Shown: positions 11,175-29,068, counted from the first letter of the stretch. The stretch: 32,000 bases of DNA from Candidatus Saccharimonadota bacterium (GCA_001029695.1 CP011211.1:780001-812000); one strand, 5' to 3'. The notes: generated from the sequence alone by a model not told the origin. Program-made: numbers and translations.

Positions 11175-12353
11175 GTGCTTGATGTGTCACTTCGCTGTCG
11201 TATCTATGTGATCTTTGCATCAGTGCTGCTGTTGGTCTTCGGCTCACTCGGCTTTGGGTCTGTTGCTAACGCAACGCCATCACTTGCGCCATCTCCGACC
11301 GGAGATAGCTACTTGGACCTATGGCCTCGGGCGAATACTTCAATGCAAAACGGTGAGATACTTTCGTCTCGCTCGGTCGCTTTGACTGGTCCGTTGGTCG
11401 TAACGATCAATCCGAAGGTCTGGCAGTTATGGTTCAAGACCACTACTGCAGATGGTCGGCCGACTACAGCTCTGACGACGGTTCTCAAACCAGCAAACTG
11501 GAATGGGAGTGTTGTCAGTAATAACTACGCTATTGATGGGCTAGGGTTGAAGTGCAACCCGTCGTATCAGCTGACTCGTGGATTTGCTGTCGAAGTGCCT
11601 GATATTACAAGACAATTGCTTGCTCGTGGGTACGCGGTCGTGATGACCGACTACCAAGGAGGCTCTATGGCTTATGGGCATGGACCAACGCAGGCACCAA
11701 TTGTTCTTGATGGTATTCGAGCAGCACTTGGATTTTCAGCAGCCGGATTGCAGGGCAGTACTGTTGCAATGACTGGGTATAGCGGTGGCGCAATTGCTAC
11801 CGGATGGGCAGCTCAGTTGCAGCCAGCTTACGCACCGGAGCTTGCATTAGCAGGTGTCGTCATGGGCGGAACGCCTGCAGATTTGAGTTTGTTAGATGAA
11901 TACATGGATGGCAAGGTGCCTGCATCTGGCCTGTATCTATTGGCGGCGCTTGGTGTTGCTCGTGTAACAGCTGGAGCACCTGATCTGTTGAATCCAATTG
12001 GTGTTCAGTTGGCGCAAGGATTTAAGGATTCATGTGTCGAGATGGGGTTTATTGCTGGTGTTTTGCCGCTACCACTCTCGACATTTACAAGCCAGGGTCT
12101 CTATGACAATGATGTAGTACGGCAAGTACTGCATGATACAAGGATGGGAGGTATTGCCCCGACGGTTCCTGTACTGCTATTCCATGGACAGTATGATCTC
12201 TGGGTCCCAATAGCGGGAGCAGAGACGCTGTACGATGATTGGACTAACCTGGGAGCGGATGTTTCATTTCTCGTCGTGCCAGGTGAGCATATAACTGGTG
12301 CATTTGATCCGCGCCCACTTGATCAGCTTGATGAGTGGCTGCAGATGAAGTGA
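11175..12353 (+). CDS. secreted lipase, LIP (secretory lipase) family, alpha/beta hydrolase
   Basis: An N-terminal signal-like segment (VIFASVLLLVFGSLGFGSVANA) is present. The nucleophile elbow GYSGGAIATGWAAQLQPAYAPEL and the upstream DYQGG...YGHGPTQAPIVLDGIRAA block are characteristic of the LIP family. The GTG start at 11175 is tentative. Confidence 0.8.
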   Translation: MLDVSLRCRIYVIFASVLLLVFGSLGFGSVANATPSLAPSPTGDSYLDLWPRANTSMQNGEILSSRSVALTGPLVVTINPKVWQLWFKTTTADGRPTTALTTVLKPANWNGSVVSNNYAIDGLGLKCNPSYQLTRGFAVEVPDITRQLLARGYAVVMTDYQGGSMAYGHGPTQAPIVLDGIRAALGFSAAGLQGSTVAMTGYSGGAIATGWAAQLQPAYAPELALAGVVMGGTPADLSLLDEYMDGKVPASGLYLLAALGVARVTAGAPDLLNPIGVQLAQGFKDSCVEMGFIAGVLPLPLSTFTSQGLYDNDVVRQVLHDTRMGGIAPTVPVLLFHGQYDLWVPIAGAETLYDDWTNLGADVSFLVVPGEHITGAFDPRPLDQLDEWLQMK

Positions 12354-14354: not shown

Positions 14355-14954
14355 ATGAATAAAAAAACAAAACAGTTCAATCTATGGCTGAAAGAGTACA
14401 AAAAAGCGATTATTATATGTGTATCTCTAGTTGTTGTGCTTGGCGCCGGTGTTTTTGGTGCACTATACTATTTTAATATCATCGGCGGTACATCCGAGGG
14501 TGGTCAGCCAGAGAGTCAAGAAGTAGTGCAAGCACGAGTTGAGCAGTCTAAAAAAGACGGTAAGCTTCGCGATGAGGCGGCATCAGCAGCTAAAGCTGGC
14601 GATACTGCCAAGTCAGCAGAGGTTTACAAGCAGGCTGTTGAGGCAGAACCGAACGTTGAAAGGAAAGTACAACTTCAGTTGGATCAATCGGGTGTTCTAT
14701 ATGCAGCCGGTAAATATGACGAGGCAATTGCTGCGGCAAAAGTGGCAGATGCGTTTAGTGAAGACAAGTTCTTGCTTGCTGATTGGCTTTCACGCTTGTA
14801 TGAAGCTCGACAAAATTATCCTGAGGCAATTAAATACTATAAGCTGGCTGGCGACTGGGCGAAAAGTGGCAGTAATAAAACGGGTATATCAAAAGAGCAA
14901 TTTTATGCTGAGGCTGTACGTGTTCAAACCTTAGTAAAGACAGGGAAAGAGTAG
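14355..14954 (+). CDS. membrane-anchored TPR-like repeat protein
   Basis: The N-terminal TM is AIIICVSLVVVLGAGVFGALYYF. TPR-like helical pairs follow (AGKYDEAIAAAKVA and RQNYPEAIKYYKLAGDW). The stop lies 9 nt before the VWA gene. Confidence 0.7.
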   Translation: MNKKTKQFNLWLKEYKKAIIICVSLVVVLGAGVFGALYYFNIIGGTSEGGQPESQEVVQARVEQSKKDGKLRDEAASAAKAGDTAKSAEVYKQAVEAEPNVERKVQLQLDQSGVLYAAGKYDEAIAAAKVADAFSEDKFLLADWLSRLYEARQNYPEAIKYYKLAGDWAKSGSNKTGISKEQFYAEAVRVQTLVKTGKE

Positions 14955-14963
14955 GGCTATTTT

Positions 14964-17264
14964 ATGAGTGTACGATCAGTAATTACAAAGAGCCTACTGC
15001 TTCTCGGTGGTAGTGCATTATCGGTGCTTGCATACTGTGCGATAACTACTGATGTCGCTCAAGCTCAATCGGTAAGCCAGCGAGAGTGTAATACTGTGAT
15101 CGTTTTCGATAGGTCTGGATCGGTTGGTGGCCCAAATCTTGAAGTGCTGCGAGAGCAGACGCGTCGACTCTTTCAGCCTGGCGGTCTTGACAGTAGCAAG
15201 ATTAATGTAGCATTTTGGTCTTTCTCTGATGAGTACGCAATAGACTGGACTGGAGCGATAAATAAGAACTTTAATGCGCCATTTCACGACTTTGTTTCGT
15301 CAAAGGGTGTAAATTCTAGCTTTAATAACGCTATGAATGCCATGACATCTGTAGGTGGTACGAATTACCAGCAAGGATTTGGCTATCAAGGGAATATAGC
15401 AAACCCTTACACCCAGGCGATTGTAGACAGAGCGGATATAATTACGTTCCTTACGGATGGCGACCCAAACTGGAATGCTGGCGGAGGGTTGGAGGGTGGT
15501 CGGATAGCTGCTCAGAAGCATCGTGACGCGGGTAGGGTAACTATCGGTGGAATTATTGGTTCAAATGCTGATATGCTGCGTAACCTCAACTATGTGTTAA
15601 CTAACGACCTAAATAATGGCAATGATTCTTTCCAAGTTAGTGGTAATTATTCGGATCTTTCTAAGGTGCTAACCAGTCGAATTGAAAAAAAGTGTAAAGA
15701 ACTAAACCCGCCATGCCAGTATGATCCATCAATCCTTGCCGATGACCCAAGCTGTGTGCCTCGTTGCCAGTTCAACCCGAACATCCCAAATAATAGCCCA
15801 CAGTGCTTCCCGCCATGCCCATACAATACAACCATTCCGCAAAATGACCCTCGTTGCGTGAAGCCTCCATATGAGTTAAAACCGTCTACGTCTTCTAGTA
15901 GTTCATCGATGTCGAGCAATGACAGTGTTGGCCTTACGTATACTGTAGATAATAAAACAGCAGTACGTAGTGACCCGACAGGCTGGTCAATTACTCAGGT
16001 GGTTGTCGAGAAGGGTCAGAGTGTTGATCGTCTCAAGAAGATTAATGATAGTAACCCAGATCTTACGTATGCGGATGGATTAAACTGTACGGAGCTACTA
16101 CAGAAAGTCAATCGAGCGGGAACATGCAAGCCAAACATAGCCTCGGGTACAAAAGTTTTCGATCAAAATAAAACAACAACACTAGCTCCTTCTGATGGTA
16201 TTGGTGGCGCGGCGAGCACTTTGGTTATCGATGATGCTTGGCCAGTGGGCACTAAAGTATGCTACTTGCTGTCGATCGACCGCCCTACGGAGAATGACAC
16301 TCCGCGAAATCGCTATGGAAACGCCTCATGTATCACGATCGGCAAGCGTCCGACAGTCCAGGTGTGGGGTGGTGACGTGCGAGTAGGTAGCGGTGCGGCG
16401 AATACGGGTGATCAACCGGGTATCAAGACAGCACTCACGATACGTAATAGTGGTATCTTTGGTAGCTGGTCTGAGTACGGTGCATTTGCGCCGGGCAAGA
16501 TTGTCGGCTTTTCTACAGCATCGGGCTTAGCAAATGAGGGACCAACAGGCTTTCCGTATAGTGGAGGTGATCCATTCGCAACGCGCGCTGCGTGGAGCAA
16601 GTTGACCTTTGCCAACAAGACTGTTAATCCGGATGACGAGTATGGGAATTTTTCATCGACTGGTATCGATTCATCAACTACCGCAAGTAACATCGTAAAG
16701 ACGACTAAAAAAATTGCGGATACCGGGGGTGTGTTCAACGTCTCAAGTCTTCAATCGGGCCTATATGAGAACCCAGCAGGTGATGTTGTGGTTGAGGCTG
16801 GAGATGTACCGGCAGGTAAATCTATAGTCCTGTACGTACCAAAAGGTAAAGTCACAATAGCGGGCGACATAAAATATGCAAATGGACCATTCCGATCTGC
16901 CGCTGAGATTCCTCAATTTATCATTATTGCAAAAAATATCGACATCAACAGCAATGTTGGCCGCGTGGATTCATGGCTTCTTGCGCAATCGAGCGACGAT
17001 GACAGTGGGGTTATCTCAACCTGTGAGACAAAGTCGGGACTGACAATCGATACGTGCAGTAAACAGCTTCGTATTAATGGACCTATCGTAGCGAAGAGAA
17101 TACACCTTCTTCGTACTGCAGGTGGCGACAGCAAGGACGATCAAGGTACGCCAGCAGAGATCATTAACTTTCGGGCTGACGCGCTTCTATGGGCATATGG
17201 GTCGGGTCGTAGTGAACAACGTGTCATGACGACGCACACAACTGAACTTCCGGTGCGATATTAA
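14964..17264 (+). CDS. secreted VWA (MIDAS) domain protein with Cys/Pro repeat stalk and large C-terminal domain; candidate pilus-associated adhesin
   Basis: - A Sec-type signal is present (LLLLGGSALSVLAYCAITTDVAQA).
- The MIDAS set is complete: VFDRSGSV (DxSxS), GGTNY (Thr) and FLTDGDPN (Asp).
- Three 17-aa Cys/Pro repeats and a poly-Ser linker follow.
- A Gly/Thr-rich C-terminal region of about 445 aa matches no family I recognise. Confidence 0.8.
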   Translation: MSVRSVITKSLLLLGGSALSVLAYCAITTDVAQAQSVSQRECNTVIVFDRSGSVGGPNLEVLREQTRRLFQPGGLDSSKINVAFWSFSDEYAIDWTGAINKNFNAPFHDFVSSKGVNSSFNNAMNAMTSVGGTNYQQGFGYQGNIANPYTQAIVDRADIITFLTDGDPNWNAGGGLEGGRIAAQKHRDAGRVTIGGIIGSNADMLRNLNYVLTNDLNNGNDSFQVSGNYSDLSKVLTSRIEKKCKELNPPCQYDPSILADDPSCVPRCQFNPNIPNNSPQCFPPCPYNTTIPQNDPRCVKPPYELKPSTSSSSSSMSSNDSVGLTYTVDNKTAVRSDPTGWSITQVVVEKGQSVDRLKKINDSNPDLTYADGLNCTELLQKVNRAGTCKPNIASGTKVFDQNKTTTLAPSDGIGGAASTLVIDDAWPVGTKVCYLLSIDRPTENDTPRNRYGNASCITIGKRPTVQVWGGDVRVGSGAANTGDQPGIKTALTIRNSGIFGSWSEYGAFAPGKIVGFSTASGLANEGPTGFPYSGGDPFATRAAWSKLTFANKTVNPDDEYGNFSSTGIDSSTTASNIVKTTKKIADTGGVFNVSSLQSGLYENPAGDVVVEAGDVPAGKSIVLYVPKGKVTIAGDIKYANGPFRSAAEIPQFIIIAKNIDINSNVGRVDSWLLAQSSDDDSGVISTCETKSGLTIDTCSKQLRINGPIVAKRIHLLRTAGGDSKDDQGTPAEIINFRADALLWAYGSGRSEQRVMTTHTTELPVRY
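15708..15860 (+). repeat. three tandem 51-nt (17-aa) Cys/Pro-rich repeats inside the VWA protein gene
   Basis: The repeats are PPCQYDPSILADDPSCV, PRCQFNPNIPNNSPQCF and PPCPYNTTIPQNDPRCV. They are conserved at the protein level and diverged at the DNA level. Confidence 0.85.
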
Positions 17265-17302
17265 CAATAAAACACTTTAAATAAGCATAATAGTTATGTA
17301 TA

Positions 17303-18361
17303 ATGAGAAACAATATGGCAATTATAAAAGGCGTGGGTGATTTTTTTGGTCTAGATATAGGGACGACTGCTGTTCGTGCGGTCCAACTATCAAATAATGG
17401 CAACGGACGCTGGACGTTGAAGCACTACGGGTATGCACCGCTCGATGCGAAGACAGCAGAGGCAAGTTCAGTAGAGGCACGACACCGCCTAGGTGAAGTG
17501 ATTATGACTGTCGTAGGACAGAGTGGTATTAAGACGAAGAATGTCGCAGTCAGCCTTGCCGCTAACAAGACTTTTGTAACCGTTGTTGATCTTCCTAAGG
17601 TCTCTGATGCAGAACTAAAAAGCACTATCAAATATCAGATCGATGAATATATTCCTATGTCTATCGATGAAGCAAAGGTTGATTGGTCACTGCTTGGTCA
17701 GTCGCTCCATGATCCTTCAAAGCAAGAGGTGTTGCTAGCAAGTGTGACAGAGCAGTACGCTGAAGAAACACTCGATTTTGTTGAGGGATTAGGATTCGAT
17801 GTTGTTGCGAGTGAGCCTGAATCACTTGCCATGATCCGTTCAGTTCGAGATCCTGCAGCCAAGAATGCTCAGGTGATCGTTGATATCGGGGAATCATCGA
17901 CGAATGTTGCGGTAGTATACGGTGATCAGCCGCGATTAGTTCGTACAATTCCGAATGGACTCTCAACGCTTGTTCGTGCGGCGGTGCAGAACCTCAGTAT
18001 CCAAGATGATCAAGCGCGACAATTTATCTTAAAGTTTGGACTTTCTCGAGACAAGCTAGAGGGCCAAGTTGTTATAGCGCTCGATAGCACTCTTGAAGGT
18101 TTTGTGTCCGAGATCAATAAATCGATTAAGTTCTTCCAAACTCGTTGCCCATCAATACCTGTAGGTGACATTCTCGTATCTGGTTACGCAAGCACTATCC
18201 CAGGTTTACCTGAGTATGTTGGTCAAAAGACAAGTATCCCAACGGCTCTAGCTGATCCGTGGCGACATGTAAATGTACCAGCAGGTGATCAGAAGCTTGC
18301 AGCGATTCGTTCAGAATTTACGACAGCGGTCGGGCTTGCGCAAAGGAGTGGAAAAGCATGA
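17303..18361 (+). CDS. pilM: type IV pilus assembly protein PilM (actin-like ATPase fold)
   Basis: The N-terminus FGLDIGTTAVRAVQL and the overall length fit PilM. It has a 4-nt ATGA overlap with pilN. The start is either 17303 or the ATG at 17315 (MAIIKG). Confidence 0.88.
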   Translation: MRNNMAIIKGVGDFFGLDIGTTAVRAVQLSNNGNGRWTLKHYGYAPLDAKTAEASSVEARHRLGEVIMTVVGQSGIKTKNVAVSLAANKTFVTVVDLPKVSDAELKSTIKYQIDEYIPMSIDEAKVDWSLLGQSLHDPSKQEVLLASVTEQYAEETLDFVEGLGFDVVASEPESLAMIRSVRDPAAKNAQVIVDIGESSTNVAVVYGDQPRLVRTIPNGLSTLVRAAVQNLSIQDDQARQFILKFGLSRDKLEGQVVIALDSTLEGFVSEINKSIKFFQTRCPSIPVGDILVSGYASTIPGLPEYVGQKTSIPTALADPWRHVNVPAGDQKLAAIRSEFTTAVGLAQRSGKA

Positions 18362-19074
18362 TTGAAGTCAATCTTATTCCAGATGTAAAACAGGAGCTGT
18401 TGAAAGCTCGAGTTGTTCGTCGATACGTTATTTCTAGCACTGTTATCGTAGGCATGGCGGCGGTTGGCGTTGTTGTGCTGCTTGGACTTCTATGGATATC
18501 TCTTGGTGTGCGTGGTGCTCTTCTTGATGATTCGATCACTAAAAAGGGGACAGAATACCGCTCGGTGAGTGACCTCGAAAAAACACTGACAATCCAGAAT
18601 CAATTAAGTGCACTATCTGCAATGCACGATAAGAAAAATATCGACTCACGTATATTTCCACTACTAGACGTGATTAATCCGGCAAGTCCAAATAACATCA
18701 GTATCTCGTCAACGAAGATTGATGCTGAAAACAAGACTATAACGATTGGTGGACAGGCATCAAACGGCTATGAGGCTGCTGAAATATTTAAAAAGACTAT
18801 CCTTGGCACGAGAGTTTCTTATATTGATGGTAACGGAGCTTCACAGTCAAAACTACTCACGGATAGTGTCAGTAGTTCTGATATGAGTACTGGTGAAGAT
18901 GCGACAGGAAAGAAGGTTCTTCGCTTTAGCTTCTCATTCGTGTATCCTGCTGAGTTATTTGAACAGTCATCTAGCCAAGCAATTATAGAACGACCAGGAC
19001 GTAAGAACGTAACAGATTCATACCTTCGTGTTCCTCAAAGTCTATTTAGCGACCGAGAAGGAGGCCAACAGTAA
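18358..19074 (+). CDS. pilN: type IV pilus assembly protein PilN-like
   Basis: The N-terminal IEVNLIP corresponds to the PilN INLLP-type motif that binds PilM. It has a single TM (VISSTVIVGMAAVGVVVLLGLLWI) and is translationally coupled on both sides. Confidence 0.8.
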   Translation: MIEVNLIPDVKQELLKARVVRRYVISSTVIVGMAAVGVVVLLGLLWISLGVRGALLDDSITKKGTEYRSVSDLEKTLTIQNQLSALSAMHDKKNIDSRIFPLLDVINPASPNNISISSTKIDAENKTITIGGQASNGYEAAEIFKKTILGTRVSYIDGNGASQSKLLTDSVSSSDMSTGEDATGKKVLRFSFSFVYPAELFEQSSSQAIIERPGRKNVTDSYLRVPQSLFSDREGGQQ

Positions 19075-19736
19075 TGGACAAAATGAGCAACGGACTAAGA
19101 AAGCGACAGCAGATTACTCGAGCCAATCAGACGATGTTCTTGTGGGTCGCAGGTGTGTCGGTGATTATCGGATTTTCTGTAGTGATTGCACTTTTCATTG
19201 GTCAGAAGATTATCTATAGCCAAAAGGTCATTCAAAAGAAAGAGCAGACAGAGAAGCATCTTGTCGCAAACCTCAAAAATATCGATGATCTCAAGGGTAA
19301 GATTCGCGTTCTTGATACCGATGAGGGGCTGAAGTCTACACGCTTGAGTGAAAACGATAGCGCTATTCAATCAATTCTTGATGCACTACCGGCTGATGCA
19401 AATGTGACAGCGCTAGGTTCGTCGCTTGAAAAGAAGATCCTGAATGTTCCTGGAGTTACGGTTGAGTCTATTACTCCGGGCCAGCTTTCAGAAGGTGATT
19501 CTAGTGGCGATGCAACGCCACAGACTCTTCCAGTAAGTTTCTCAGTCTCAGTTGCAAGTAGCAATACCGATGCGCTGCGTGAAGTCTTACTGCGTCTCGA
19601 AAAATCGATTCGTGCTATAAATGTCACTAATCTCTCACTTGAGACGCAAGGGACAAAGCGATTCTTGACCGTAACGGCTGAAGTGTATTATCAATCACCA
19701 GTATCAGTTGAGCAGAAAAAAGAGGTGGTAAAGTAA
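19074..19736 (+). CDS. PilO-like bitopic pilus alignment protein
   Basis: A basic N-terminus is followed by a single TM (MFLWVAGVSVIIGFSVVIALFIG) and a coiled-coil-like segment. It sits after pilN with 1-nt TAATG overlaps on both sides. Confidence 0.6.
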   Translation: MDKMSNGLRKRQQITRANQTMFLWVAGVSVIIGFSVVIALFIGQKIIYSQKVIQKKEQTEKHLVANLKNIDDLKGKIRVLDTDEGLKSTRLSENDSAIQSILDALPADANVTALGSSLEKKILNVPGVTVESITPGQLSEGDSSGDATPQTLPVSFSVSVASSNTDALREVLLRLEKSIRAINVTNLSLETQGTKRFLTVTAEVYYQSPVSVEQKKEVVK

Positions 19737-19972
19737 TGAAAAAACAAGATATTGCTACGCTAGTATTTATTGCTTCACTAAGTGTGTTTGTTGCCTATTT
19801 TATCGCAAATGCTGCATTTGGCGGCTCAAGTCAGGGATCGACGAAAGTTGAAACTGTCAAAGAAATTTCGCCTGATGTTGAAGAACCTGATAAATCGGTT
19901 TTTAATAAAGATGCAATCAATCCAACGGTCGAAGTGATCATTGGTGATCAACAACAAACAACAAGTCAATAA
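19736..19972 (+). CDS. small single-pass membrane protein (78 aa) within the pilus operon
   Basis: The TM is IATLVFIASLSVFVAYFIANAAF, followed by an acidic/polar tail. It is translationally coupled to the PilO-like gene. Confidence 0.5.
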   Translation: MKKQDIATLVFIASLSVFVAYFIANAAFGGSSQGSTKVETVKEISPDVEEPDKSVFNKDAINPTVEVIIGDQQQTTSQ

Positions 19973-19992: not shown

Positions 19993-21756
19993 ATGGCGTT
20001 CTTGACGACAGAGATACAAGATAAGCTAACCGCTCTCTTTATAGATGAGGGGCTTGTTGCGAGTGAAGTGCTCGAAGCTGCTAGAGCAGAGTCTGCATCT
20101 TCGAAAGAGCCATTATTTGCATTGCTGACACAGAAGCATATCATCGACGATGAAATGCTTGCACATGCGATTGCGCAGGTATCAGGTGTGCCGTATGTAA
20201 ACCTGACAAACAGTGTTATTAGTCAGCAGGTGCTTGATCTGCTTCCAGAAGATGTGGCTGAGCGGTTCATGGCCGTGCCACTTGCTGAGATGCAAAACCG
20301 GCTTGCCGTTGCAATGGTTGACGCTAGTAACGTGCAAGCGGTCGACTATCTTGCGAGTCGTATTGATAAGCCACTCAAGGTCTTTATGGCATCCGAAGAG
20401 GGTGTACGACATATTCTCGATCAGTATCGCACCGATCTTTCGACGATTGATGCTGCCGCTGAAGTGTCGCAGCAGGAAGCTGCCGTTGAAGAGAATAATA
20501 ATATCAAGACAATCGTACAAGATTCGCCGATTAGTCGGGCGCTCAGTACAATTTTGGAGTATGCCGTAAAGAGTCGTGCAAGCGATATTCATATCGAACC
20601 ACTCGAGGGTGCGTTGAAGATTCGTTGTCGTGTCGACGGTGTGCTACGTGAAATTATGCAGTTACCAAAGACAATTGAGCCTGCTCTAGTGAGCCGTATA
20701 AAAATTTTATCCAATCTAAAGATCGATGAACACCGGGTGCCTCAGGATGGTCAGTTTGCTGTAAAGATCGCCAACAAAGAAGTGGATCTTCGTATCGCTA
20801 TTAGCCCAGTTGTTTGGGGTGAGCAAGTAGTTATCCGACTACTCGACAAGTCAGGCGCAAGCTTCGACCTTGAAGACATGGGATATGCTGGTCGTGCTCT
20901 TCGGGCAATTCGAAAAGGTGTGAAGCGACCAAATGGTATGGTGCTTACTTCTGGTCCAACTGGATCCGGTAAGTCCACGAGCCTTTATGCGCTTATAAAA
21001 GAAATCAAGGATGATAGCGTGAATATCGTAACGCTAGAAGATCCAGTTGAGTATAAGATGAGTGGAGTGAATCAAATTCAGGTTAATGGAGAGGTTGGTC
21101 TTACATTTGCCAACGGACTTCGCTCAATTCTTCGTCAGGACCCTGATGTCGTGATGGTGGGTGAGATACGTGATGACGAAACTGCAAGTCTTGCGGTGCA
21201 GGCTGCGCTCACGGGGCACCTTGTGTTTAGTACCCTGCACACCAACAGTGCGGCGGGGGTGTTACCTCGACTACTTGATATGCATATCGAACCATTTCTG
21301 ATTGCAAGTACTGTCAACACTATTATTGGTCAGCGTCTCGTCCGACGGGTCTCTCAGAAGCGTGATTCATACCAGTCCTCTCCGCTAGAAACGCAAAATA
21401 TACTTGCGACGGTTGGGCACCTCCTTCCCAAGACGCCAGCAGAGGTAGTTCAGGTATCTCAGGATCTTGGCTATAAAGACTTGCCACTTGCAGGCCAAAA
21501 CGCTTATACTCTAGTCAAGGGTAAAGATACGCCCGCTACCCCAAGGGGTTATAACGGTCGCGCTGGGCTCTATGAAGTGATGGATGTCACCGAAGAGATT
21601 CAGCAGCTTATTGTTACGAGATCTACGACAACAGCAATACAGAAGGTTGCGGTTGCTCAGGGGATGATAACAATGCGACAAGACGGGTATCTAAAAGCAC
21701 TGCAGGGTATTACGACGCTCGAAGAAGTTAATCGCGTTACAGCGGATACACTATAA
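19993..21756 (+). CDS. pilB: type IV pilus extension ATPase PilB (GspE family)
   Basis: A GAGGTGG SD precedes it. It has an N-terminal GspE-N-like domain, Walker A GPTGSGKST and the His box LVFSTLHTNSAAG. No tetracysteine motif is present. Confidence 0.93.
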   Translation: MAFLTTEIQDKLTALFIDEGLVASEVLEAARAESASSKEPLFALLTQKHIIDDEMLAHAIAQVSGVPYVNLTNSVISQQVLDLLPEDVAERFMAVPLAEMQNRLAVAMVDASNVQAVDYLASRIDKPLKVFMASEEGVRHILDQYRTDLSTIDAAAEVSQQEAAVEENNNIKTIVQDSPISRALSTILEYAVKSRASDIHIEPLEGALKIRCRVDGVLREIMQLPKTIEPALVSRIKILSNLKIDEHRVPQDGQFAVKIANKEVDLRIAISPVVWGEQVVIRLLDKSGASFDLEDMGYAGRALRAIRKGVKRPNGMVLTSGPTGSGKSTSLYALIKEIKDDSVNIVTLEDPVEYKMSGVNQIQVNGEVGLTFANGLRSILRQDPDVVMVGEIRDDETASLAVQAALTGHLVFSTLHTNSAAGVLPRLLDMHIEPFLIASTVNTIIGQRLVRRVSQKRDSYQSSPLETQNILATVGHLLPKTPAEVVQVSQDLGYKDLPLAGQNAYTLVKGKDTPATPRGYNGRAGLYEVMDVTEEIQQLIVTRSTTTAIQKVAVAQGMITMRQDGYLKALQGITTLEEVNRVTADTL

Positions 21757-21779: not shown

Positions 21780-22850
21780 ATGGCTAACCAAGAACTAAGA
21801 ATTGAAATCCTTCTCGAAGAAGTGGTACGGCGTCGTGCATCCGATCTGCATCTTCAAGTGAGTCTACCTCCGATGTTACGTATTGATGGTTCTCTCGTGC
21901 CAGTAGCTGGTATGAGCGCACTCGATGAAGCCGCAGTTGAAGCACTTATTTTTGCAATCCTCGACCCTGATCAACAGCAGATTCTGGAAAAAGACAAAGA
22001 ATTTGACTTTAGCTTCGCCTTTGGCGCTCTTGGTCGTTTCCGTGTCAATGCGTATCATGAACGCGGTAATCTCGCAGCGGCACTACGTTTGATCCCAAAT
22101 GAGATCAAGACTATTAAAGAGCTGGGTGTTCCAGCAACGGTTATGAATTTTGCCAACTATCCTCGAGGATTGGTACTTATCACGGGTCCAACTGGCTCTG
22201 GTAAGTCGACGACGCTCGCTTCGCTTATTGATAAGATCAACGAAGAGACCTCGCAGCATATTATCACTATTGAAGATCCAATCGAGTTTACGCACAAGTC
22301 AAAGAAATCTGTTGTTGTACAGCGTGAAGTTCACTATGACACATATAGTTTCTCGGCTGCGCTTCGCTCAAGCCTTCGTCAAGATCCTGACGTTGTATTG
22401 ATCGGTGAGATGCGTGACCTCGAGACGATTAGTGCTGCGATTACAATCGCCGAAACCGGACACCTGGTCCTGGGCTCACTTCATACAAACAGTGCGGCAC
22501 AGTCAATTGACCGTATGATTGATGTATTTCCTCCGCATCAGCAGCCGCAAATTCGCGCGCAACTTGCAAATATCTTGATGGCGATCTGTTCACAGCGACT
22601 AGTACCAGCAATTGGCGGTGGCCGCGTTGTGGCGGCAGAAGTTCTGATAGCAAACCCAGCAGTACGAAATATTATCCGTGAAGGTAAGAGTCATCAGCTT
22701 GATGCGGTAATTCAGACGGGTGCAGATAGTGGCATGCAGACAATGGACCGTACTCTTGTGGGGCTTGTCCAGAGTGGTGCAGTTACGTATGACGATGCGC
22801 GTAGTTTCGCAGTTGATCTAACAGAGTTTGAAAGGTTAATGCGAGGATAG
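21780..22850 (+). CDS. pilT: type IV pilus retraction ATPase PilT
   Basis: At 356 aa it carries Walker A GPTGSGKSTT, the His box GSLHTNSAAQSIDR and the PilT signature AVRNIIREGK. Confidence 0.93.
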   Translation: MANQELRIEILLEEVVRRRASDLHLQVSLPPMLRIDGSLVPVAGMSALDEAAVEALIFAILDPDQQQILEKDKEFDFSFAFGALGRFRVNAYHERGNLAAALRLIPNEIKTIKELGVPATVMNFANYPRGLVLITGPTGSGKSTTLASLIDKINEETSQHIITIEDPIEFTHKSKKSVVVQREVHYDTYSFSAALRSSLRQDPDVVLIGEMRDLETISAAITIAETGHLVLGSLHTNSAAQSIDRMIDVFPPHQQPQIRAQLANILMAICSQRLVPAIGGGRVVAAEVLIANPAVRNIIREGKSHQLDAVIQTGADSGMQTMDRTLVGLVQSGAVTYDDARSFAVDLTEFERLMRG

Positions 22851-22856
22851 CCAGTA

Positions 22857-24065
22857 ATGCGTAAGTTTATCTACGAAGCAAAGGACGGATCAACAGGCAA
22901 GGTAGTAAAGGCTGCTATTTCTGCTGAGACGGAGCGTGCGGCAGCAAAAATCCTCCTAAAGCAAGGGTTCACGCCACTCTCAATAAAAGAGCAGGAGTCG
23001 ACGAGTAGTACGTTTAGTCGTCTACGGAATCGCGTATCGGTAAAAGATAAAGTTGTCTTCACGAGGCAACTATCGACGCTTATCGCAGCGGGACTGCCTC
23101 TTTCGCAGAGTTTGCGAACTGTTGTCGAGCAGACGCCAAACGTGCGGCTCAAATCAGTGCTTCAGGATGTTATTGAGTCAATCGAGGGTGGTCGTTCACT
23201 GCATGATTCATTTGCTAAACATCCGGGTGTTTTTGACAAGCTATTTCTTGCGCTTGTAGCAGTAGGTGAGTCATCGGGTACTCTTGATGAGGCGCTGCAA
23301 AGAGTTGCTGCCCAGCAAGAGAAGGATGCAGCTATCTTGGGCAAAATCCGTGGAGCGATGACGTATCCAGTTATTGTGCTCTTTGTTATCTTTGGAGTGC
23401 TTGGCTTTATGCTTCTAACAGTAGTTCCACAAGTTGAGAAGCTCTATAAAGATCTCGATAAGGAGCTTCCGCTGCTGACACAGTTGATGGTCTCGGCATC
23501 AAACTTCTTGATCAACTTCTGGTGGCTTGTACTGATTGTGATTGCGACGGCGGTGTATTTTGCGGTTCGCTATATCAAAACTCCAGCAGGTATTCGTACG
23601 TATGATAGCTTCAAGCTTAATGTTCCAATCTTTGGTGGAATGTTCCAGAAGCTCTACATGGCGCGCTTTAATCGAACAGGGCAGACGCTCCTTGAGTCAG
23701 GTGTGGCGATGCTCGACATGCTCAAGATTACGAGTGAGGCGGTTAGTAATACGCTGATTAGTGAAAGTATTCTTCGTGCATCTGAAAAGGTCCGAGGAGG
23801 TAAGGCTCTATCGGTAACGCTAAAGTCAGAAGACCATTTCCCTGTACTGGTATCTCAAATGATCAAGATCGGTGAACAATCGGGTCGTATCGACGAAATG
23901 ATGGGTAAAACGGCGACGATCTACGAGGATGAGCTTGATGAGCAAATTCGAACTATTTCAACTGCTATTGAGCCGGTACTGATGGTTGTTCTCGCTATTG
24001 CAGCCGGTGGTATGGTTGCAGCAATCTTGCTGCCAATCTATGGACTCGTAGGCAATATGGGCTAG
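22857..24065 (+). CDS. pilC: type IV pilus platform protein PilC (GspF family)
   Basis: At 402 aa it has two GspF-type repeats (LSTLIAAGLPLSQSL and RTGQTLLESGVAMLDML) and three hydrophobic segments. Confidence 0.92.
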   Translation: MRKFIYEAKDGSTGKVVKAAISAETERAAAKILLKQGFTPLSIKEQESTSSTFSRLRNRVSVKDKVVFTRQLSTLIAAGLPLSQSLRTVVEQTPNVRLKSVLQDVIESIEGGRSLHDSFAKHPGVFDKLFLALVAVGESSGTLDEALQRVAAQQEKDAAILGKIRGAMTYPVIVLFVIFGVLGFMLLTVVPQVEKLYKDLDKELPLLTQLMVSASNFLINFWWLVLIVIATAVYFAVRYIKTPAGIRTYDSFKLNVPIFGGMFQKLYMARFNRTGQTLLESGVAMLDMLKITSEAVSNTLISESILRASEKVRGGKALSVTLKSEDHFPVLVSQMIKIGEQSGRIDEMMGKTATIYEDELDEQIRTISTAIEPVLMVVLAIAAGGMVAAILLPIYGLVGNMG

Positions 24066-24163: not shown

Positions 24164-24643
24164 ATGAACGCCGTATCAAAAAACAAACAATCCGGATTTA
24201 CTATTATCGAGGTTGTACTCGTACTTGCGATCGCAGGGCTTATCTTCTTGATGGTCTTTGTCGCACTGCCAACACTTCAGCGTAATCAGCGAGACACTCA
24301 GCGAAAGCAGGATATGAGTCGTATTACTACCGCGGTAGCGAGCTATACGCAAAATAATAAAGGTGCACTCCCTGATGATCAGGCGAAGTGGACTAACTTT
24401 ATGGAAAAGTACTTAAAGGTTGATGGGGATGCGTTTGCAGATCCAACATTCGGTAGCTACTCTTTGTCGTATAAGGCCCTATCAGATACTGCAACTCCAT
24501 CAACTCCCGTATCTGAGACTGGTATAATTAATGTGTATCCGCAAAGAAAATGTAATGGAGAGAGTCTAGAGACTGGCCAGAAGCGTAATGTGGCTTTTGC
24601 TATGAAACTAGAAGGTGGTGGTGTAGCTTGTCAAAGCTACTAG
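24164..24643 (+). CDS. pilA: type IV pilin, in-cluster major pilin candidate
   Basis: MNAVSKNKQSG|FTIIEVVLVLAIAGLIFLMVF has Gly-1, Phe+1 and Glu+5. A C-terminal Cys pair (RKCNG...VACQSY) is consistent with a disulfide-bonded D-region. AAAGGGTGG SD and TATAAT (24127-24132) lie upstream. Confidence 0.9.
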   Translation: MNAVSKNKQSGFTIIEVVLVLAIAGLIFLMVFVALPTLQRNQRDTQRKQDMSRITTAVASYTQNNKGALPDDQAKWTNFMEKYLKVDGDAFADPTFGSYSLSYKALSDTATPSTPVSETGIINVYPQRKCNGESLETGQKRNVAFAMKLEGGGVACQSY

Positions 24644-24727: not shown

Positions 24728-25627
24728 ATGATAGTGCTTATGGAATTTATACTTATTTGTGTTGCACTTGCGTGGATAGGCACGATCCTTGGAAGTTTTG
24801 GTGCTGCTTCTGTTTGGCGTCTGCGCGCTTATCAGCTAAAGGCTGATAAGAAAGCGGGTGAGAAGATCGATAAAAAGGAGTATGCTCAACTACGTCCATT
24901 AACTGAAGTGAGTACAAAAACTGATCGCTCACGCTGCTTGCACTGTGGCCATAACCTTGCGTGGTTTGACCTGTTACCGATTATTAGCTGGCTGCAGCTT
25001 CGCGGTAAGTGCCGATACTGCCACAAAAAAATAGGTAGCTTTGAATTGTTGATGGAGCTAGGTGTGGCGGCTTTCTTCGTCGTGTCGTTTGTCTACTGGC
25101 CGCACGCACTCTCATCTTGGATTGAGATAGCGCAGTTTCTATTATGGCTTATCGGAGGCTTCGGACTGAGTGTATTGCTGGCGTATGACGCAAAGTGGTT
25201 CTTGCTGCCGAATAAAGTAGTATTCCCGCTTATAGGTATCGCGGCTGCTTCAGCAGTACTGACATTACTTAACTCTAGTGATGTTGTAGTCACTCTCTAT
25301 GGTATAGCTACTTCATGCCTCATCCTTTCTGGGGTCTACTATCTTTTATATGTCGTCTCAAAGGGAGAATGGATTGGGTTTGGGGATATTAAGCTGGGTC
25401 TCGTGCTCGCACTACTTCTTGCAGATTGGCGTTTGGCGTTTTTGACGCTGTTCTTGGCAAATGTGATCGGGTGTCTTGTTGTTATCCCTGGTATGCTTAG
25501 CAAAAAACTTACCCGAAAGTCACATGTACCGTTTGGGCCGATGCTTATCGTTGCCTGGGCTGTCGCTGGATTATTTGGCGAGAGATTGATTGACTGGTAT
25601 ATGCAGGCGGTGCTTCAGTTTATTTAG
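24728..25627 (+). CDS. pilD: prepilin peptidase PilD (A24 aspartyl peptidase/N-methylase)
   Basis: It is a polytopic membrane protein with the cytoplasmic Zn motif CLHCGHNL...CRYCHKKI. Aspartate motifs AYDAKWF and GFGDIKL are present. Confidence 0.92.
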   Translation: MIVLMEFILICVALAWIGTILGSFGAASVWRLRAYQLKADKKAGEKIDKKEYAQLRPLTEVSTKTDRSRCLHCGHNLAWFDLLPIISWLQLRGKCRYCHKKIGSFELLMELGVAAFFVVSFVYWPHALSSWIEIAQFLLWLIGGFGLSVLLAYDAKWFLLPNKVVFPLIGIAAASAVLTLLNSSDVVVTLYGIATSCLILSGVYYLLYVVSKGEWIGFGDIKLGLVLALLLADWRLAFLTLFLANVIGCLVVIPGMLSKKLTRKSHVPFGPMLIVAWAVAGLFGERLIDWYMQAVLQFI

Positions 25628-25638
25628 TAACGTGTTGA

Positions 25639-26427
25639 TTGCGGTTATGGTATAATGAAACGCAAATGGGTGCGCAAAAACAACACGGATTTACCATTAT
25701 CGAAGTACTCCTCTTTATCGCAATTAGCGGAGGTTTACTCGCTGCGCTGCTGGTTGGCGTAAACGGGAGTATAGAGCAGCAGCGCTACCGGGATAGTGTG
25801 ACATCTCTCGCAAGCTTTATGCAGTCTCAGTACGACAAGGCATTAAATACTTCAAACAGTCGCTCGAGCTCATTGAATTGTGACGCAGCGGGTATTGTGT
25901 CTGCAGCAGGTACCCAGCCAGGAACTACTGACTGTTTGATAATAGGACGACTCATTACGGGGGATCAGAATGGTGTATCGCTCCGCAGTACTGACATTAT
26001 CGCATACGTAGTAGATAGCAATGCCTTTGAGGAGAAGAGCGATGTAGACTCGCTTAGGACATCAGGTGTCGTAAAGCTAATGCTTGCTGGCGGTGCGGAT
26101 GCATCGCTTTGGGATGAATACACTCCAGAGTGGGGTGCAAAGAGTATGCCGCTGGATGCTACAGGTGCTGCATTTGGTTCAGGCGGTAAATTTGCGATGG
26201 CGATTATTCGTTCTCCAAAAAATGGCTCTATGATGACGTTTATAGGGAATGGAGCAACAGAAAATATACAAGATGAGCTCATTAGCACCGAAGGGCTGAA
26301 GAATCCATTAACACTATGTGTGGAGCCGGATGGCTTTGCTGCGCCTCAAAAACGCGCTATTGTAATTGCTCCTAATACAATTAGCCCTGCGGGTGTTTCA
26401 ACGAAGGCTGGGGTCGCGGGATGTTAG
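25639..26427 (+). CDS. pilin-like minor pilin 1 (GspH/FimU position)
   Basis: The prepilin motif is MGAQKQHG|FTIIEVLLFIAISGGLLA. The likely true start is the ATG at 25666, preceded by TGGTATAAT (25648-25656). Confidence 0.8.
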   Translation: MRLWYNETQMGAQKQHGFTIIEVLLFIAISGGLLAALLVGVNGSIEQQRYRDSVTSLASFMQSQYDKALNTSNSRSSSLNCDAAGIVSAAGTQPGTTDCLIIGRLITGDQNGVSLRSTDIIAYVVDSNAFEEKSDVDSLRTSGVVKLMLAGGADASLWDEYTPEWGAKSMPLDATGAAFGSGGKFAMAIIRSPKNGSMMTFIGNGATENIQDELISTEGLKNPLTLCVEPDGFAAPQKRAIVIAPNTISPAGVSTKAGVAGC

Positions 26428-27059
26428 TTTCTTTGAAAAGAAACGATAGAGGTGACACTATTGTCGAAGTCCTATTTGCAGTAACGATTTTTGCTATGTT
26501 GGCAGTGGGTGCATTGTCTATTATGAACCAGGGACTTGGTATCGCGCAGCGTGCACTTGAAATAAATCTTGTACGTCAGCAGATTGACGCGCAAACTGAT
26601 GCACTACGGTACCTTAATCAGGCGTATGTGGCTGATTATGGGAAAGAGATTACGTCAGGCTCACCAACCGACCTATGGAATAAGCTTATTGTGAAAAATA
26701 CTGTACGGTCTGCAGTATCGTACGACACTATGGTTACTGGGACTCAGTGTCGTGAGATGAAAAATAACCTATCCGGTGATGTGTCCGCTGATGACACAAA
26801 TGCCTTTGCACTTGATGTGACAAAACTTGATAATCCTGCCGGAGATGCACTGCTTGCGCTGTCGCCTGCAACAACCTACGCAAAGGTTCGCTACGGCGCG
26901 CCTCAGTCGACGGCAGAAGGGATTTCGATCCAGGCAGTAAAGTCAAATGCCGATAATGATTTTTATGATTTTCATATTCGTGCATGTTGGGCGAGTCCAG
27001 GCCAAGCCCAACCTGTACTTATAGGGACGATTGTGAGGTTATATGAACCACGTGGGTAA
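26421..27059 (+). CDS. pilin-like minor pilin 2 (GspI/PilV position), Asp at +1
   Basis: MLVSLKRNDRG|DTIVEVLFAVTIFAMLAVGAL has Glu+5 conserved. It overlaps the upstream gene by 7 nt. Confidence 0.75.
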   Translation: MLVSLKRNDRGDTIVEVLFAVTIFAMLAVGALSIMNQGLGIAQRALEINLVRQQIDAQTDALRYLNQAYVADYGKEITSGSPTDLWNKLIVKNTVRSAVSYDTMVTGTQCREMKNNLSGDVSADDTNAFALDVTKLDNPAGDALLALSPATTYAKVRYGAPQSTAEGISIQAVKSNADNDFYDFHIRACWASPGQAQPVLIGTIVRLYEPRG

Positions 27060-27789
27060 TAGCAAGGGATTTACTTTAGTGGAGCTACTACTTGCGATGT
27101 CGTTCGTGTCACTGCTACTGATGGCGATCGCGCTGACTGTCCTCAAGATGGGCGACATGTACACCCAGGGACTCACGCTGAAAGAAGTGAATCTTGCGGG
27201 AAAGTCGGTGAGTGATGATATTAGCCGTTCGATAGCAGCTGCGACTGAGTTTTCGGTTGACGGTAGTACCGCAACAGGCTTTCAAGAGCAGAAAGTGGGT
27301 GCGACGGTTGTCGGAGGCCGCTTGTGTACTGGTACTGTAACGTATGTATGGAATCTTGGTCGTGAGATTCGCGAGGACAATCTTACGACTCTGGTGAATA
27401 AATATGCCGGTGGAGATACTAGGGTTATACGAATGATCAAAGTAGTTGATGTGGGTGGTGTGTACTGCGGCGTAGACCTGCCGGATATCGAGCCAACAAA
27501 GGCAACTGATATGCTTCCGGAAGGTGATTTGCAGCTTGCTGTACAGAGCTTTGCTATTAAACAAGTTGCTCATAACGACGTATCACAGCAAAGCATGTTC
27601 CAGGTGATTCTTGAGCTTGGGACGAACGACCAGGATGCGCTCCAGTCTATCACAGATACAGAAAGCAGCATCCCAACAATTACAACCTCTTGTAAGCCGC
27701 CCAATGACGAGGGCTCTCGTCAAGAGTACTGTGCGATTAATAAATTTGAGTTCACCGCAAGGGTCGGAAGTAGAGGAGCAGAGCTATAA
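27043..27789 (+). CDS. pilin-like minor pilin 3 (GspJ/PilW position)
   Basis: The motif is MNHVGNSKG|FTLVELLLAMSFVSLLLMAI. It overlaps the upstream gene by 17 nt. Confidence 0.8.
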   Translation: MNHVGNSKGFTLVELLLAMSFVSLLLMAIALTVLKMGDMYTQGLTLKEVNLAGKSVSDDISRSIAAATEFSVDGSTATGFQEQKVGATVVGGRLCTGTVTYVWNLGREIREDNLTTLVNKYAGGDTRVIRMIKVVDVGGVYCGVDLPDIEPTKATDMLPEGDLQLAVQSFAIKQVAHNDVSQQSMFQVILELGTNDQDALQSITDTESSIPTITTSCKPPNDEGSRQEYCAINKFEFTARVGSRGAEL

Positions 27790-29012
27790 TGAAGAGGCAA
27801 CTAACAGGTGAAAGTGAGCGAGGGGCTGTTTCGCTTTTCGTAGTTATTTTTACGGCGCTTATAGTGACAGTCATGACGGTAAGTTTTATCCGTCTTATGA
27901 TTGACGGTCAAAGAAGCGCCTCTGATGCCGATCTTTCACGCAGTGCGCTCGACTCTGCGCAAGCGGGTGTTGAAGATGCTAAGCGTGCACTGGTAAAATA
28001 TCGATCATGTCTTTCTGGGAGCTCTGATCCAACTACGTGTGCTCGTCTTGTGGCGACTCTACCGACTGATAAGTCCTGTCAGGTACTCCAAAATAGTGGA
28101 ATTGTAGGTGCACCTGCAGACAAAGAGGTGATTATTAAGCAGAGTGATGGTGACGAGAAGTTGCAGCAAGCGTACACTTGCGTGAAAGTTGAGATAAATA
28201 GCGACGACTATATTGGAACAATCGACCAGGACAAGTCGCGTATTATACCACTCCGAGGTGTCAGCGAGTTTAATCAGATCAGAATAAAGTGGTTTACGAT
28301 CGACGACTTGGCAAATCCAGAAGATCGAATCGATCTACCTGCGCTCCCGTCTGATCCATCTGCAGGCTTTGAGCTACCAAAGCAGGCGGACTGGCCATCT
28401 AATCAGCCTGCACTTATGCGTGCACAGCTTATTCAGTACGGAGACAACTTCACTCTTGATCAATTCGATAAACCAGAAGGGGGGGATTCAAATTCGAATA
28501 CACTTTTCCTATATCCGGATCAAGTTGGAGCAAAGAGTTATAGCTTCTTGAGTGATGGTCGTCGATCTGCTTCCTCTGGGCTTCTTAGGAGTGTTACTTG
28601 TGATCCAAACTTTAGTAAGGAGACAAGTGCAACCACCGGAAGGCAGTACGCTTGCGAGACGATCATTACGCTACCGAAAGCAATTGGAGCATCTAGTGAA
28701 AAGCAGCGCACTGCCTACCTCAACCTTATGGGACTCTACCGGTCGAGCAATAATTTCAAAATTGAGCTTCTAAATAGTTCAGGTGGTGTTGCGAGTACTC
28801 CGGATGTTGTTAAGTTTGGCGGTGTGCAGGCGGTTGTTGATTCGACTGGTCGTGCGAATGACAAGTTTCGACGAGTTGAGAGTCGTGTTGAACTTGATGC
28901 GAACACCTTCCAGTACCCAACTTCGACAAGCAACACGAGCGCAGGATTCTGTAAGAATTTCTTCGTAACGGATGCTGCTGCGGAATATGTCAAAGGGGAT
29001 GATGATTGCTAG
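27789..29012 (+). CDS. PilX/GspK-like large minor pilin lacking Glu+5
   Basis: The N-terminus is ERG|AVSLFVVIFTALIVTVMTVSFIRLMIDGQRSASD, which is PilX_N-like with no Glu at +5. At 407 aa, it has a C-terminal VVDSTGRANDKFRRVESRVEL motif typical of PilX-like proteins. It has a 1-nt overlap with the upstream gene. Confidence 0.75.
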   Translation: MKRQLTGESERGAVSLFVVIFTALIVTVMTVSFIRLMIDGQRSASDADLSRSALDSAQAGVEDAKRALVKYRSCLSGSSDPTTCARLVATLPTDKSCQVLQNSGIVGAPADKEVIIKQSDGDEKLQQAYTCVKVEINSDDYIGTIDQDKSRIIPLRGVSEFNQIRIKWFTIDDLANPEDRIDLPALPSDPSAGFELPKQADWPSNQPALMRAQLIQYGDNFTLDQFDKPEGGDSNSNTLFLYPDQVGAKSYSFLSDGRRSASSGLLRSVTCDPNFSKETSATTGRQYACETIITLPKAIGASSEKQRTAYLNLMGLYRSSNNFKIELLNSSGGVASTPDVVKFGGVQAVVDSTGRANDKFRRVESRVELDANTFQYPTSTSNTSAGFCKNFFVTDAAAEYVKGDDDC

Positions 29013-29032: not shown

Positions 29033-29068
29033 AAATAAATTACCGCCATAAGTGGCGGTAATTTATTT
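29033..29068. terminator. bidirectional terminator closing the pilus locus
   Basis: This is a perfect 16-bp stem, AAATAAATTACCGCCA (29033-29048) pairing with TGGCGGTAATTTATTT (29053-29068), around the loop TAAG. A/T runs flank both sides, and it overlaps the stop of the recombinase gene. Confidence 0.85.

Follow-up and report, generated by a model that had tools for sequence, protein, structure and literature searches.

A conserved gene pair upstream of pilM in Saccharibacteria type IV pilus loci encodes a candidate pilus-associated adhesin with an exchangeable head

PilY1 proteins of type IV pilus systems combine a type I signal peptide with a poorly conserved N-terminus, which sometimes carries a von Willebrand factor A (vWA) domain, and a well-conserved C-terminus (PMC7541494). 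Myxococcus xanthus has several PilY1/minor-pilin clusters; in its PilY1, the conserved C-terminal domain makes contact with the minor pilins and with PilO, while the variable N-terminus with vWA faces outward (PMC7541494). Two large minor pilins of TM7x, PilX1 and PilX2, have been proposed as pilus tip adhesins (PMC11623550). Here, we describe a gene pair in a 32,000-nucleotide stretch of DNA from Candidatus Saccharimonadota bacterium (GCA_001029695.1, CP011211.1:780001-812000), referred to below as the window. The pair lies directly 5′ of pilM in a complete type IV pilus locus (Table 1) and encodes a 199-residue membrane protein with tetratricopeptide repeat (TPR) similarity, here called the partner, and a 766-residue modular protein with a Sec-type signal and a VWA head.

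The conserved unit of this pair is formed by the last ~340 residues of the 766-residue protein together with the partner, and not by the VWA head. We read the pair as an accessory module of the Saccharibacteria T4P-1 locus that specifies a pilus-associated adhesin with an exchangeable head, analogous to PilY1 but not homologous to it, and we assign this reading a probability of roughly 45%. The reading is drawn from the combination of a conserved C-terminus with a variable head, the Sec signal, the paralogue repertoires, the near-constant placement at the pilus locus, and a rearrangement in one lineage that keeps the pair with the minor-pilin genes.

Approximately 46 close homologues of the 766-residue protein were found, with conserved synteny down to 29% identity, which indicates that both open reading frames (ORFs) are genes and not chance occurrences. 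Relatives are almost all Saccharibacteria metagenome-assembled genomes (MAGs), so that treating the organism as a monoderm epibiont is reasonable. The linkage to pilM was examined in two samples. In the first, 79 loci from one genome per species were analyzed by ORF calling and BLAST against the window proteins; a gene for the conserved C-terminal domain stands immediately 5′ of pilM in ~60 of them, at gaps of 14-100 nt, and only ~20 have a VWA head. The second, a metagenome scan, was anchored on PilM in order to remove the bias of searching with the 766-residue protein. Among the 56 loci with at least 2.5 kb of upstream sequence, the conserved-domain gene is directly 5′ of pilM in 51, and a recognizable TPR-type partner is present in 35. 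The first-pass annotation, which had interpreted the pair as a PilY1-like adhesin module, had made its proposal depend on linkage of the two genes to pilus loci in relatives, and this linkage is found. The VWA head on which it had placed the emphasis is a minority variant (3/56 loci).

The conserved domain defines a large protein family. An exhaustive phmmer search with residues 425-766 returned 2999 cluster representatives at E<=1e-3, 868 of them at E<=1e-30; with a single exception, the best 150 of the 2999 have the domain at, or close to, the C-terminus. A word-index search with the C-terminal domain alone gave only eight proteins, and the family becomes visible only by exhaustive phmmer. 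Family proteins are 570-1445 residues long, with ~230 to 1100 residues outside the conserved domain. The domain is recognized by the motifs FGSWxEYG, LTFAN, IPQLVIIAxNI, VDAWL, LRRT, and PAExxNL, and by a C-terminal tail, ELPPRF/Y, found in essentially every family member listed. In the alignment of 43 homologues, the tail columns are occupied by E761 (43/43), L762 (42/43), P763 (41/43), P764 (40/43), and F or Y at position 766 (43/43). All family members start with a hydrophobic segment, after which comes an AxA-like site. The window protein has every one of these traits: a domain of ~340 residues, the motifs, the tail, a Sec-type N-terminus, and a single-pass partner encoded on its 5′ side.

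Neither a Pfam match (residues 425-766, E<=10) nor an NCBIfam model was found for the C-terminal domain. A dedicated model of residues 425-766 has a predicted TM-score of 0.74, with a core at ~574-714 modeled at a predicted local distance difference test score (pLDDT) >=90. It consists of short stacked strands and a flanking helix, from which a β-solenoid-like fold is predicted; the invariant tail is disordered in this monomer model (pLDDT < 50). A Foldseek search with the model gave no match at E<=1e-3 in the PDB and none in BFVD. The nearest PDB neighbors, none of them significant, are an ice-binding β-helix protein (E 0.02), a fragment of a two-partner-secretion hemolysin, and the Thermus thermophilus protein ComZ (E 0.6). 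The N-terminal heads are hypervariable and have no Pfam family in common. A Pfam scan of 55 non-VWA N-termini yielded nothing beyond one weak Flg_new match, and the family proteins of TM7i and of locus L085 contain no Pfam domain.

More than one copy of the conserved-domain gene, in tandem or dispersed, occurs in loci L012, L019, L036, L037, L064, and L085, and at least four copies are present in MAG MCT-ROC-43 (L012 and L019). The duplicated unit comprises partner and protein wherever the partner is recognized (L012, L019, L036, and L037). Among duplicates, divergence is greater in the heads than in the C-terminal domains, and greater between copies of the partner than between copies of the protein. 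Two related loci, L005 and L006 (31% identity), show a different arrangement, in which the pair is directly followed by homologues of the window's mp1-mp2-mp3-PilX block, with no pilM between them, and then by an RCC1 propeller protein like TM7x PilX2.

The rate of evolution also sets the pair apart from the motor. Relative to the window and within the VWA clade, median identities are 91% for PilT, 86% for PilB, 70% for PilM, 52% for PilN, and 47% for PilO, and 31-55% for the pilins and minor pilins. The partner and the VWA head are both at 40%, and the middle and terminal domains of the 766-residue protein are both at 38%. Since these values of 38-40% are close to those of the pilins, the pair evolves like exposed fiber proteins and not like the motor.

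The partner scores 32.7 bits with Pfam TPR_2 (cutoff 27). Its Lys-rich N-terminus is followed by a hydrophobic helix of ~23 residues (~residues 18-40), in place of a lipobox. By the positive-inside rule, the composition of the N-terminus suggests that it lies inside the cell and the TPR part (residues 41-199) outside. A jackhmmer search started from the 199-residue protein recovered a single-pass TPR-like partner directly 5′ of the conserved-domain gene in ~61 gene pairs. In the remaining loci, the partner position is mostly taken by an unrelated-looking protein, usually with one predicted transmembrane helix. In 43 of the 61 pairs the distance between the two genes is -4, -1, or 0 nt, and this overlap (4 nt or 1 nt) or abutment indicates translational coupling. 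The gap is 9 nt in the window, and 38 nt separate the second gene from pilM when the start at 17303 is used; the ORFs, strands, and gaps are as first annotated, and so are the shared orientation and the TPR and membrane assignment of the partner. PilM homologues begin MALLKGVGDFF, so that the true pilM start may be the ATG at 17315.

The 766-residue protein begins with a hydrophobic core followed by the AQA↓QS site. It has no GFxxxE prepilin motif and no N_methyl match (sequence reading and Pfam), in line with the original assignment of a Sec and not a prepilin signal. In the AlphaFold2 model (mean pLDDT 76), the signal region is a lone helix at residues 4-28, and residues 41-250, the VWA part, are modeled at pLDDT ~85-94. 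Foldseek matches this part to integrin I-domains, ANTXR, VWF A1, SpaC (6m3y), and PilB (7b7p), with E values of 1e-7 to 1e-5, and the family profile searched against PDB sequences matches Mfa5 (6tnj) and calcium-channel α2δ subunits. Pfam PF00092 scores 22.6 bits on the window protein, just under the 23.8 cutoff, and is found in many homologues. The metal ion-dependent adhesion site (MIDAS) had been described as complete, and it is: DRSGS (49-53, with D49, S51, and S53), T133, and D165 are all present, and 42-43 of 43 homologues retain them. The VWA fold is equally borne out by the model and its structural neighbors. Eight cysteines are conserved to the same extent (42-43/43), which suits an exported protein.

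The Cys/Pro stalk that follows the VWA domain was correctly recognized in the initial description. It contains three 14-residue repeats, which begin at residues 251, 268, and 285 and have the form C-x-[YF]-[DN]-...-P-x-C; 39 of 43 homologues have a single repeat, and residues 251-270 are modeled at pLDDT < 50. The poly-Ser linker proposed to come next is doubtful. In homologues, the Ser run (309-319) aligns with a strand that belongs to a folded domain, and the model also makes it a strand, at pLDDT 72-92; it is thus probably not a free linker. This run belongs to a middle domain that is predicted to be β-sandwich-like, has no Pfam match at E<=10, and was found by BLAST in 36 non-VWA relatives as well, so that it is common to part of the wider family. 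The C-terminal region of ~445 residues, taken at first as one domain without a recognizable family, indeed matches none, and it divides into two units, this middle domain (~300-426) and the conserved C-terminal domain (~427-766).

Comparison with PilY1 and PilC of Pseudomonas, Neisseria, and Myxococcus reveals a shared plan. The window protein carries a type I signal and is not a pilin, the N-terminus of its family is poorly conserved and can carry a vWA domain, the C-terminus is well conserved, and several paralogues can occur per genome, as in the M. xanthus clusters (PMC7541494). In addition, the window locus contains a PilX/GspK-like minor pilin without Glu5, as PilY1 systems do. The resemblance ends at the C-terminal domain. 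Homology to PilY1 was rejected: PF05567 was not detected in the whole protein (E<=0.1) or in residues 425-766 (E<=10), neither the PDB profile search nor Foldseek returned PilY1, and the family profile matched only VWA proteins among all PDB sequences. The domain is predicted to be β-solenoid-like, with no 3HX6-like fold, and the proposed comparison with the PilY1 β-propeller is therefore negative, the nearest neighbors being β-helix proteins. As the domain is not a propeller, the protein is at most a functional analogue of PilY1 and not a member of its family. The PilY1-like character first suggested thus stands for the Sec-type, non-pilin VWA architecture with a variable N-terminus and a conserved C-terminus, and fails for the C-terminal domain. 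The gene order differs too. The gene pilY1 is part of the minor-pilin operon (fimU-pilVWX-pilY1), whereas the window gene shares a pilus locus with the minor pilins but lies 5′ of pilM, ~8 kb from them, and the two are adjacent only in L005 and L006. Unlike PilY1, the window protein comes with its own TPR membrane partner, to which it is translationally coupled, and its organism is a monoderm without a secretin. Pfam bears out the statement that no PilY1 gene is present in the minor-pilin operon, with the qualification that the operon contains the 407-residue GspK/PilX-like protein without Glu5.

Other systems share the head or the setting. PilB of Streptococcus sanguinis (7b7p; PMC8179133) belongs to a monoderm type IV pilus system and has an adhesive vWA domain with a MIDAS (Foldseek E 1.5e-5), but it is a bona fide pilin, made with a class III signal peptide, and polymerizes into the fiber, whereas the window protein carries a Sec signal and lacks the pilin helix. 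The Lactobacillus pilus adhesin SpaC (6m3y; Foldseek E 2.4e-6), RrgA-type adhesins, and P. gingivalis Mfa5 (6tnj; profile E 0.003), all borne on pili, likewise have vWA/MIDAS heads, in sortase-dependent pili with LPXTG or in type V pili; the window protein ends in ELPVRY-COOH, with no LPXTG or hydrophobic anchor. ComZ (6qvi), a tip-located competence pilin with a β-solenoid domain, is the sole pilus-related structure among the weak neighbors of the C-terminal domain (probability 0.89 over 167 columns). It is pilin-like, the match is not significant (E 0.6, TM-score 0.28), and no sequence similarity was found.

Within the phylum, PilX1 and PilX2 of TM7x belong to the same pilus loci and are likewise candidate host-binding parts with accessory domains. 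They are pilin-like and encoded at the 3′ end of the locus, whereas the window protein is a non-pilin encoded at the 5′ end. The 407-residue gene product of the window looks like the counterpart of TM7x PilX1. Locus L005 (GCA_023262335.1) also encodes, at 15751-17463 and after the pair and the minor-pilin block, a 570-residue RCC1/WD40-like propeller protein that resembles TM7x PilX2, which has an RCC1 heptabladed propeller; L005 therefore combines both candidate adhesin types.

We propose the following mechanism for a pilus-associated adhesin. The 766-residue protein would be exported by Sec, and its C-terminal ~340-residue domain, with the ELPPRF/Y-COOH tail, would serve as a docking module on the pilus apparatus. 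Most probably it would dock, close to PilN and PilO, on the priming or tip complex that the minor pilins form with the PilX/GspK-like protein. The single-pass TPR-like partner may keep the exported protein on the outside of the membrane until its capture by the priming complex, a role suggested because a monoderm has no periplasm in which to retain an exported protein. The N-terminal head would be exchangeable; here it is a VWA domain, the MIDAS metal of which could bind an acidic residue of a host-surface ligand, with the Cys/Pro stalk and the β-sandwich spacer holding it out. A fit of the invariant tail into the partner, in the manner of a TPR-peptide complex, was also considered, and was set aside as speculation given that almost no partner residues are conserved at >=80%.

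Several observations weigh against this reading. The lack of conserved partner residues leaves a specific groove for the tail unsupported, and, because the C-terminal domain is not the PilY1 propeller, PilY1 data cannot be transferred by homology. The role of tip adhesin has already been proposed for other proteins in TM7x, PilX1 and PilX2 (PMC11623550). The gene lies ~8 kb 5′ of the minor pilins with the whole machinery block between them, and a promoter-like sequence precedes pilM. This match, TTTAAA-17 nt-TATAAT (10/12), is located within 17276-17320 and overlaps the annotated pilM start at 17303, in a region where the number of such matches equals the chance expectation; were it a real promoter, pilM would be transcribed with hardly any leader or without one. 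No plus-strand terminator was found between the 766-residue gene and pilM (17264-17303). Family members occur away from any pilus gene in L019, L022, L085, L086, and L082, the last from an oral MAG; a protein search with this L082 member, aimed at cultured oral strains, gave only unnamed sequences. Finally, ychF abuts pilM with no pair between them in 4 of the 56 PilM-anchored loci (L135, L141, L146, and L153), and the pair is missing beside pilM in Southlakia epibionticum as well. Southlakia keeps the flanking synteny of efp, serine hydrolase, tlyA, and ychF, and its ychF (SEML1_0103) ends at 103880, with pilM (SEML1_0104) starting at 103892 (PMC10633639 Table S1), which leaves no room for the pair there. 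In the tables of that study, none of the three pilus loci shows a family member, and neither a VWA entry nor a matching β-helix entry is listed (PMC10633639). Most T4P1 genes of Southlakia are nevertheless class I essential in transposon sequencing (PMC10633639 main text, Table S1). The pair is thus not a core part of the pilus; the abutment of ychF and pilM suggests lineage-specific loss or relocation within a conserved syntenic block.

The idea can be extended to the whole phylum. The C-terminal domain and the partner would then be a pilus docking system that loads interchangeable host-recognition heads, with VWA as one of many folds, and would represent a non-homologous reinvention of the PilY1 principle in cells without a periplasm. 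We consider this broader proposal possible but doubtful; if it is true, head type and paralogue repertoire would set which bacteria the epibiont attaches to.

The closest alternative is that the protein is an adhesin of the cell body, co-regulated with the pilus. The C-terminal domain and tail would anchor it to the envelope through the partner or the wall, it would never be on the fiber, and the variable head would bind the host once the pili had brought the two cells into contact. Surface proteins of monoderms are typically built in this way, from a conserved anchor and a variable head, and the partner is membrane-embedded and translationally coupled. The family members far from pilus genes, the dispensability of the pair beside pilM in Southlakia, and the possible separate promoter before pilM would also be explained. 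Against this, adjacency to pilM in 51 of 56 loci over deep divergence exceeds what co-regulation usually preserves, and the rearrangement in L005 keeps the pair with the minor pilins and not with another surface-protein locus. Nor is there a wall-anchoring motif: the ELPVRY-COOH terminus offers no LPXTG with a transmembrane segment, and no SLH or CWB Pfam match was found. We judge a cell-body adhesin unlikely, though less so than the explanations that follow.

The pilus machine might instead work as a type II-like secretion piston and the protein be its substrate, with the C-terminal domain loaded on a pseudopilus tip and the VWA cargo pushed through the wall, to be released or deposited on the host. 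The linkage and modularity that we take as signs of a pilus-associated adhesin fit this explanation equally, PilY1 has been likened to a type II secretion system substrate on PilX/GspK (PMC7541494), and pilus-associated secretion is reported in a study of the monoderm Clostridium perfringens (PMC11580942). Secreted effectors, however, rarely need a dedicated membrane partner that duplicates with them, and VWA/MIDAS heads are typical of adhesins that stay attached, which makes a secreted substrate improbable.

Similarly low odds attach to a structural role in the envelope, in which the β-rich domain would form a collar or conduit through the wall or S-layer, and the TPR partner would be pilotin-like, as PilF, PilW, and TadD are for secretins. 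The placement of the pair in front of pilMNO at the operon's head, the invariant C-terminal aromatic residue, the association of a TPR protein with a large β-rich protein, which recalls a pilotin and its secretin, and the weak resemblance of the partner to BamD (NCBIfam E 0.004, far below cutoff) would agree with such a part. In contrast to PilQ and its pilotins, the pair has no match to Secretin PF00263 and a partner with a transmembrane helix where a lipobox would be expected; no significant structural match was found either, and the proline-rich tail is not a β-signal. Hypervariable heads, an adhesin-type VWA domain, tandem paralogues, and off-locus copies would be unexpected in a machine part, Southlakia has no such pair beside pilM although its T4P1 genes are mostly class I essential, and it evolves as fast as the pilins and faster than PilN and PilO. 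An enzyme, in which a β-helix-like domain would degrade glycan or wall material (the cell's own wall for the pilus, or the host envelope) with the variable N-terminus as targeting part, has little to recommend it: weak structural neighbors include the β-helix proteins pectin methylesterase and alginate lyase (E>1), the invariant polar residues D471, E504, N551, E732, and R717 would suit an active site, and wall hydrolases often join a conserved catalytic domain to a binding domain that varies, but there is no significant match in structure or sequence (the best being the ice-binding protein, E 0.02), no glycoside hydrolase or lyase family was detected, and the invariant disordered tail and the dedicated membrane partner are left unexplained.

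The VWA head is ordinary, and an adhesin with a conserved dock and a variable head at a pilus locus has clear precedent. The terminal domain, its invariant tail, the partner, and the near-universal position upstream of pilM are not found in Pfam, NCBIfam, or the Saccharibacteria pilus papers examined. The pair is not mentioned in the pilus studies of TM7x (PMC11623550), Southlakia (PMC10633639), or TM7i (PMC9894109). The published map of TM7x pilus locus one (TM7x_00415-00475) starts at pilM1 (PMC11623550), that of Southlakia (SEML1_0104-0116) starts at pilM (PMC10633639), and maps that begin at pilM omit the pair. In the TM7i study, only genes annotated identically by KEGG and NCBI were given as pilus genes (PMC9894109).

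For Saccharibacteria, and for Patescibacteria at large, a central unsolved problem is by what means these ultrasmall epibionts locate and select their bacterial hosts; a part in this has already been ascribed to type IV pili, and the components that confer specificity are unsettled. A two-gene module that heads ~90% of the main pilus loci sampled, with a hypervariable and sometimes duplicated head on a strictly conserved base, is a concrete and testable candidate for the determination of host range. The presence of the conserved domain beside pilM in about nine of ten related pilus loci makes its protein a strong candidate for epibiont host recognition. The cultured strain TM7i (CP075337.1) carries a member, with an 84-residue partner and a 1142-residue family protein 5′ of pilM (L077, 5302-8730), and Southlakia, the genetically tractable oral model, is without the module beside pilM. 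The family, represented by the 2999 clusters, is currently without annotation, and even if its members are not on the pilus, they would still form a major unstudied class of Saccharibacteria surface proteins.

Table 1. Features of the pilus locus and its surroundings, with positions counted from the first nucleotide of the window
Feature	Position	Strand	Basis or remark
Complete type IV pilus locus		+	Pfam and NCBIfam annotation of ORFs
Membrane/TPR partner gene, 199 aa	14355-14954	+	ORF call
Sec-type modular protein gene, 766 aa, stop codon included	14964-17264	+	ORF call
Signal peptide, residues 1-34	14964-15065	+	AQA↓QS site, cleavage after A34, read from sequence
VWA domain, ~residues 40-248	15081-15707	+	Foldseek, MIDAS; flanked by Cys42 and Cys244
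Cys/Pro stalk, residues 244-299	15693-15860	+	Regular-expression and column counts
Middle β-rich domain, ~residues 300-426, contains Ser run	15861-16241	+	All-strand model, pLDDT 72-94
Conserved C-terminal domain, ~residues 427-766	16242-17261	+	phmmer family, domain model
Invariant tail T-x-T-x-E-L-P-P-R-F/Y-COOH (TTHTTELPVRY in window)	17229-17261	+	No hydrophobic anchor after tail
pilM, first gene of machinery block	17303-18361 (longest ORF)	+	Pfam PilM_2 E 3.5e-40
pilN-like	18358-19074	+	
pilO-like	19074-19736	+	
Conserved 78-aa ORF	19736-19972	+	
pilB	19993-21756	+	
pilT	21780-22850	+	
pilC	22857-24065	+	
Pilin (pilA)	24164-24643	+	
pilD	24728-25627	+	
Three minor pilins	25639-27789 (25639-26427, 26421-27059, 27043-27789)	+	
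GspK/PilX-like protein, 407 aa, last pilus gene	27789-29012	+	Leader ERG↓AVSLFVVIF, no Glu5, no Pfam domain
Orphan prepilin, 210 aa	8518-9150	+	N_methyl E 1e-5
Secretory lipase family protein	11175-12353	+	Pfam LIP E 3.4e-41, signal-like N-terminus
Tyrosine recombinase, XerC/D-like	29067-29987	-	Phage_integrase E 2.4e-41 and SAM-like N-domains

The 78-residue ORF in the interval between pilO and pilB is kept in nearly every related locus, with a median identity of 51-58%, and is without a Pfam family. Southlakia has at this position a gene, SEML1_0107 (228 nt), that was scored as essential at every time point (PMC10633639 Table S1), and the ORF may encode an unnamed small component of the pilus machine.

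The region 5′ of the pair contains efp, the secretory lipase gene, and tlyA, with ychF on the minus strand. The lipase gene stands between efp and tlyA; at this position a LIP gene is also present in L001 and L016, and a gene for a β-lactamase-like serine hydrolase in Southlakia and L003. The orphan prepilin is encoded between ftsK and rpsF, ~5 kb 5′ of the pilus locus, and orphan pilins near ychF were also seen in L007, L010, L013, L058, and L059. On the other side, the tyrosine recombinase gene directly follows the last pilus gene.

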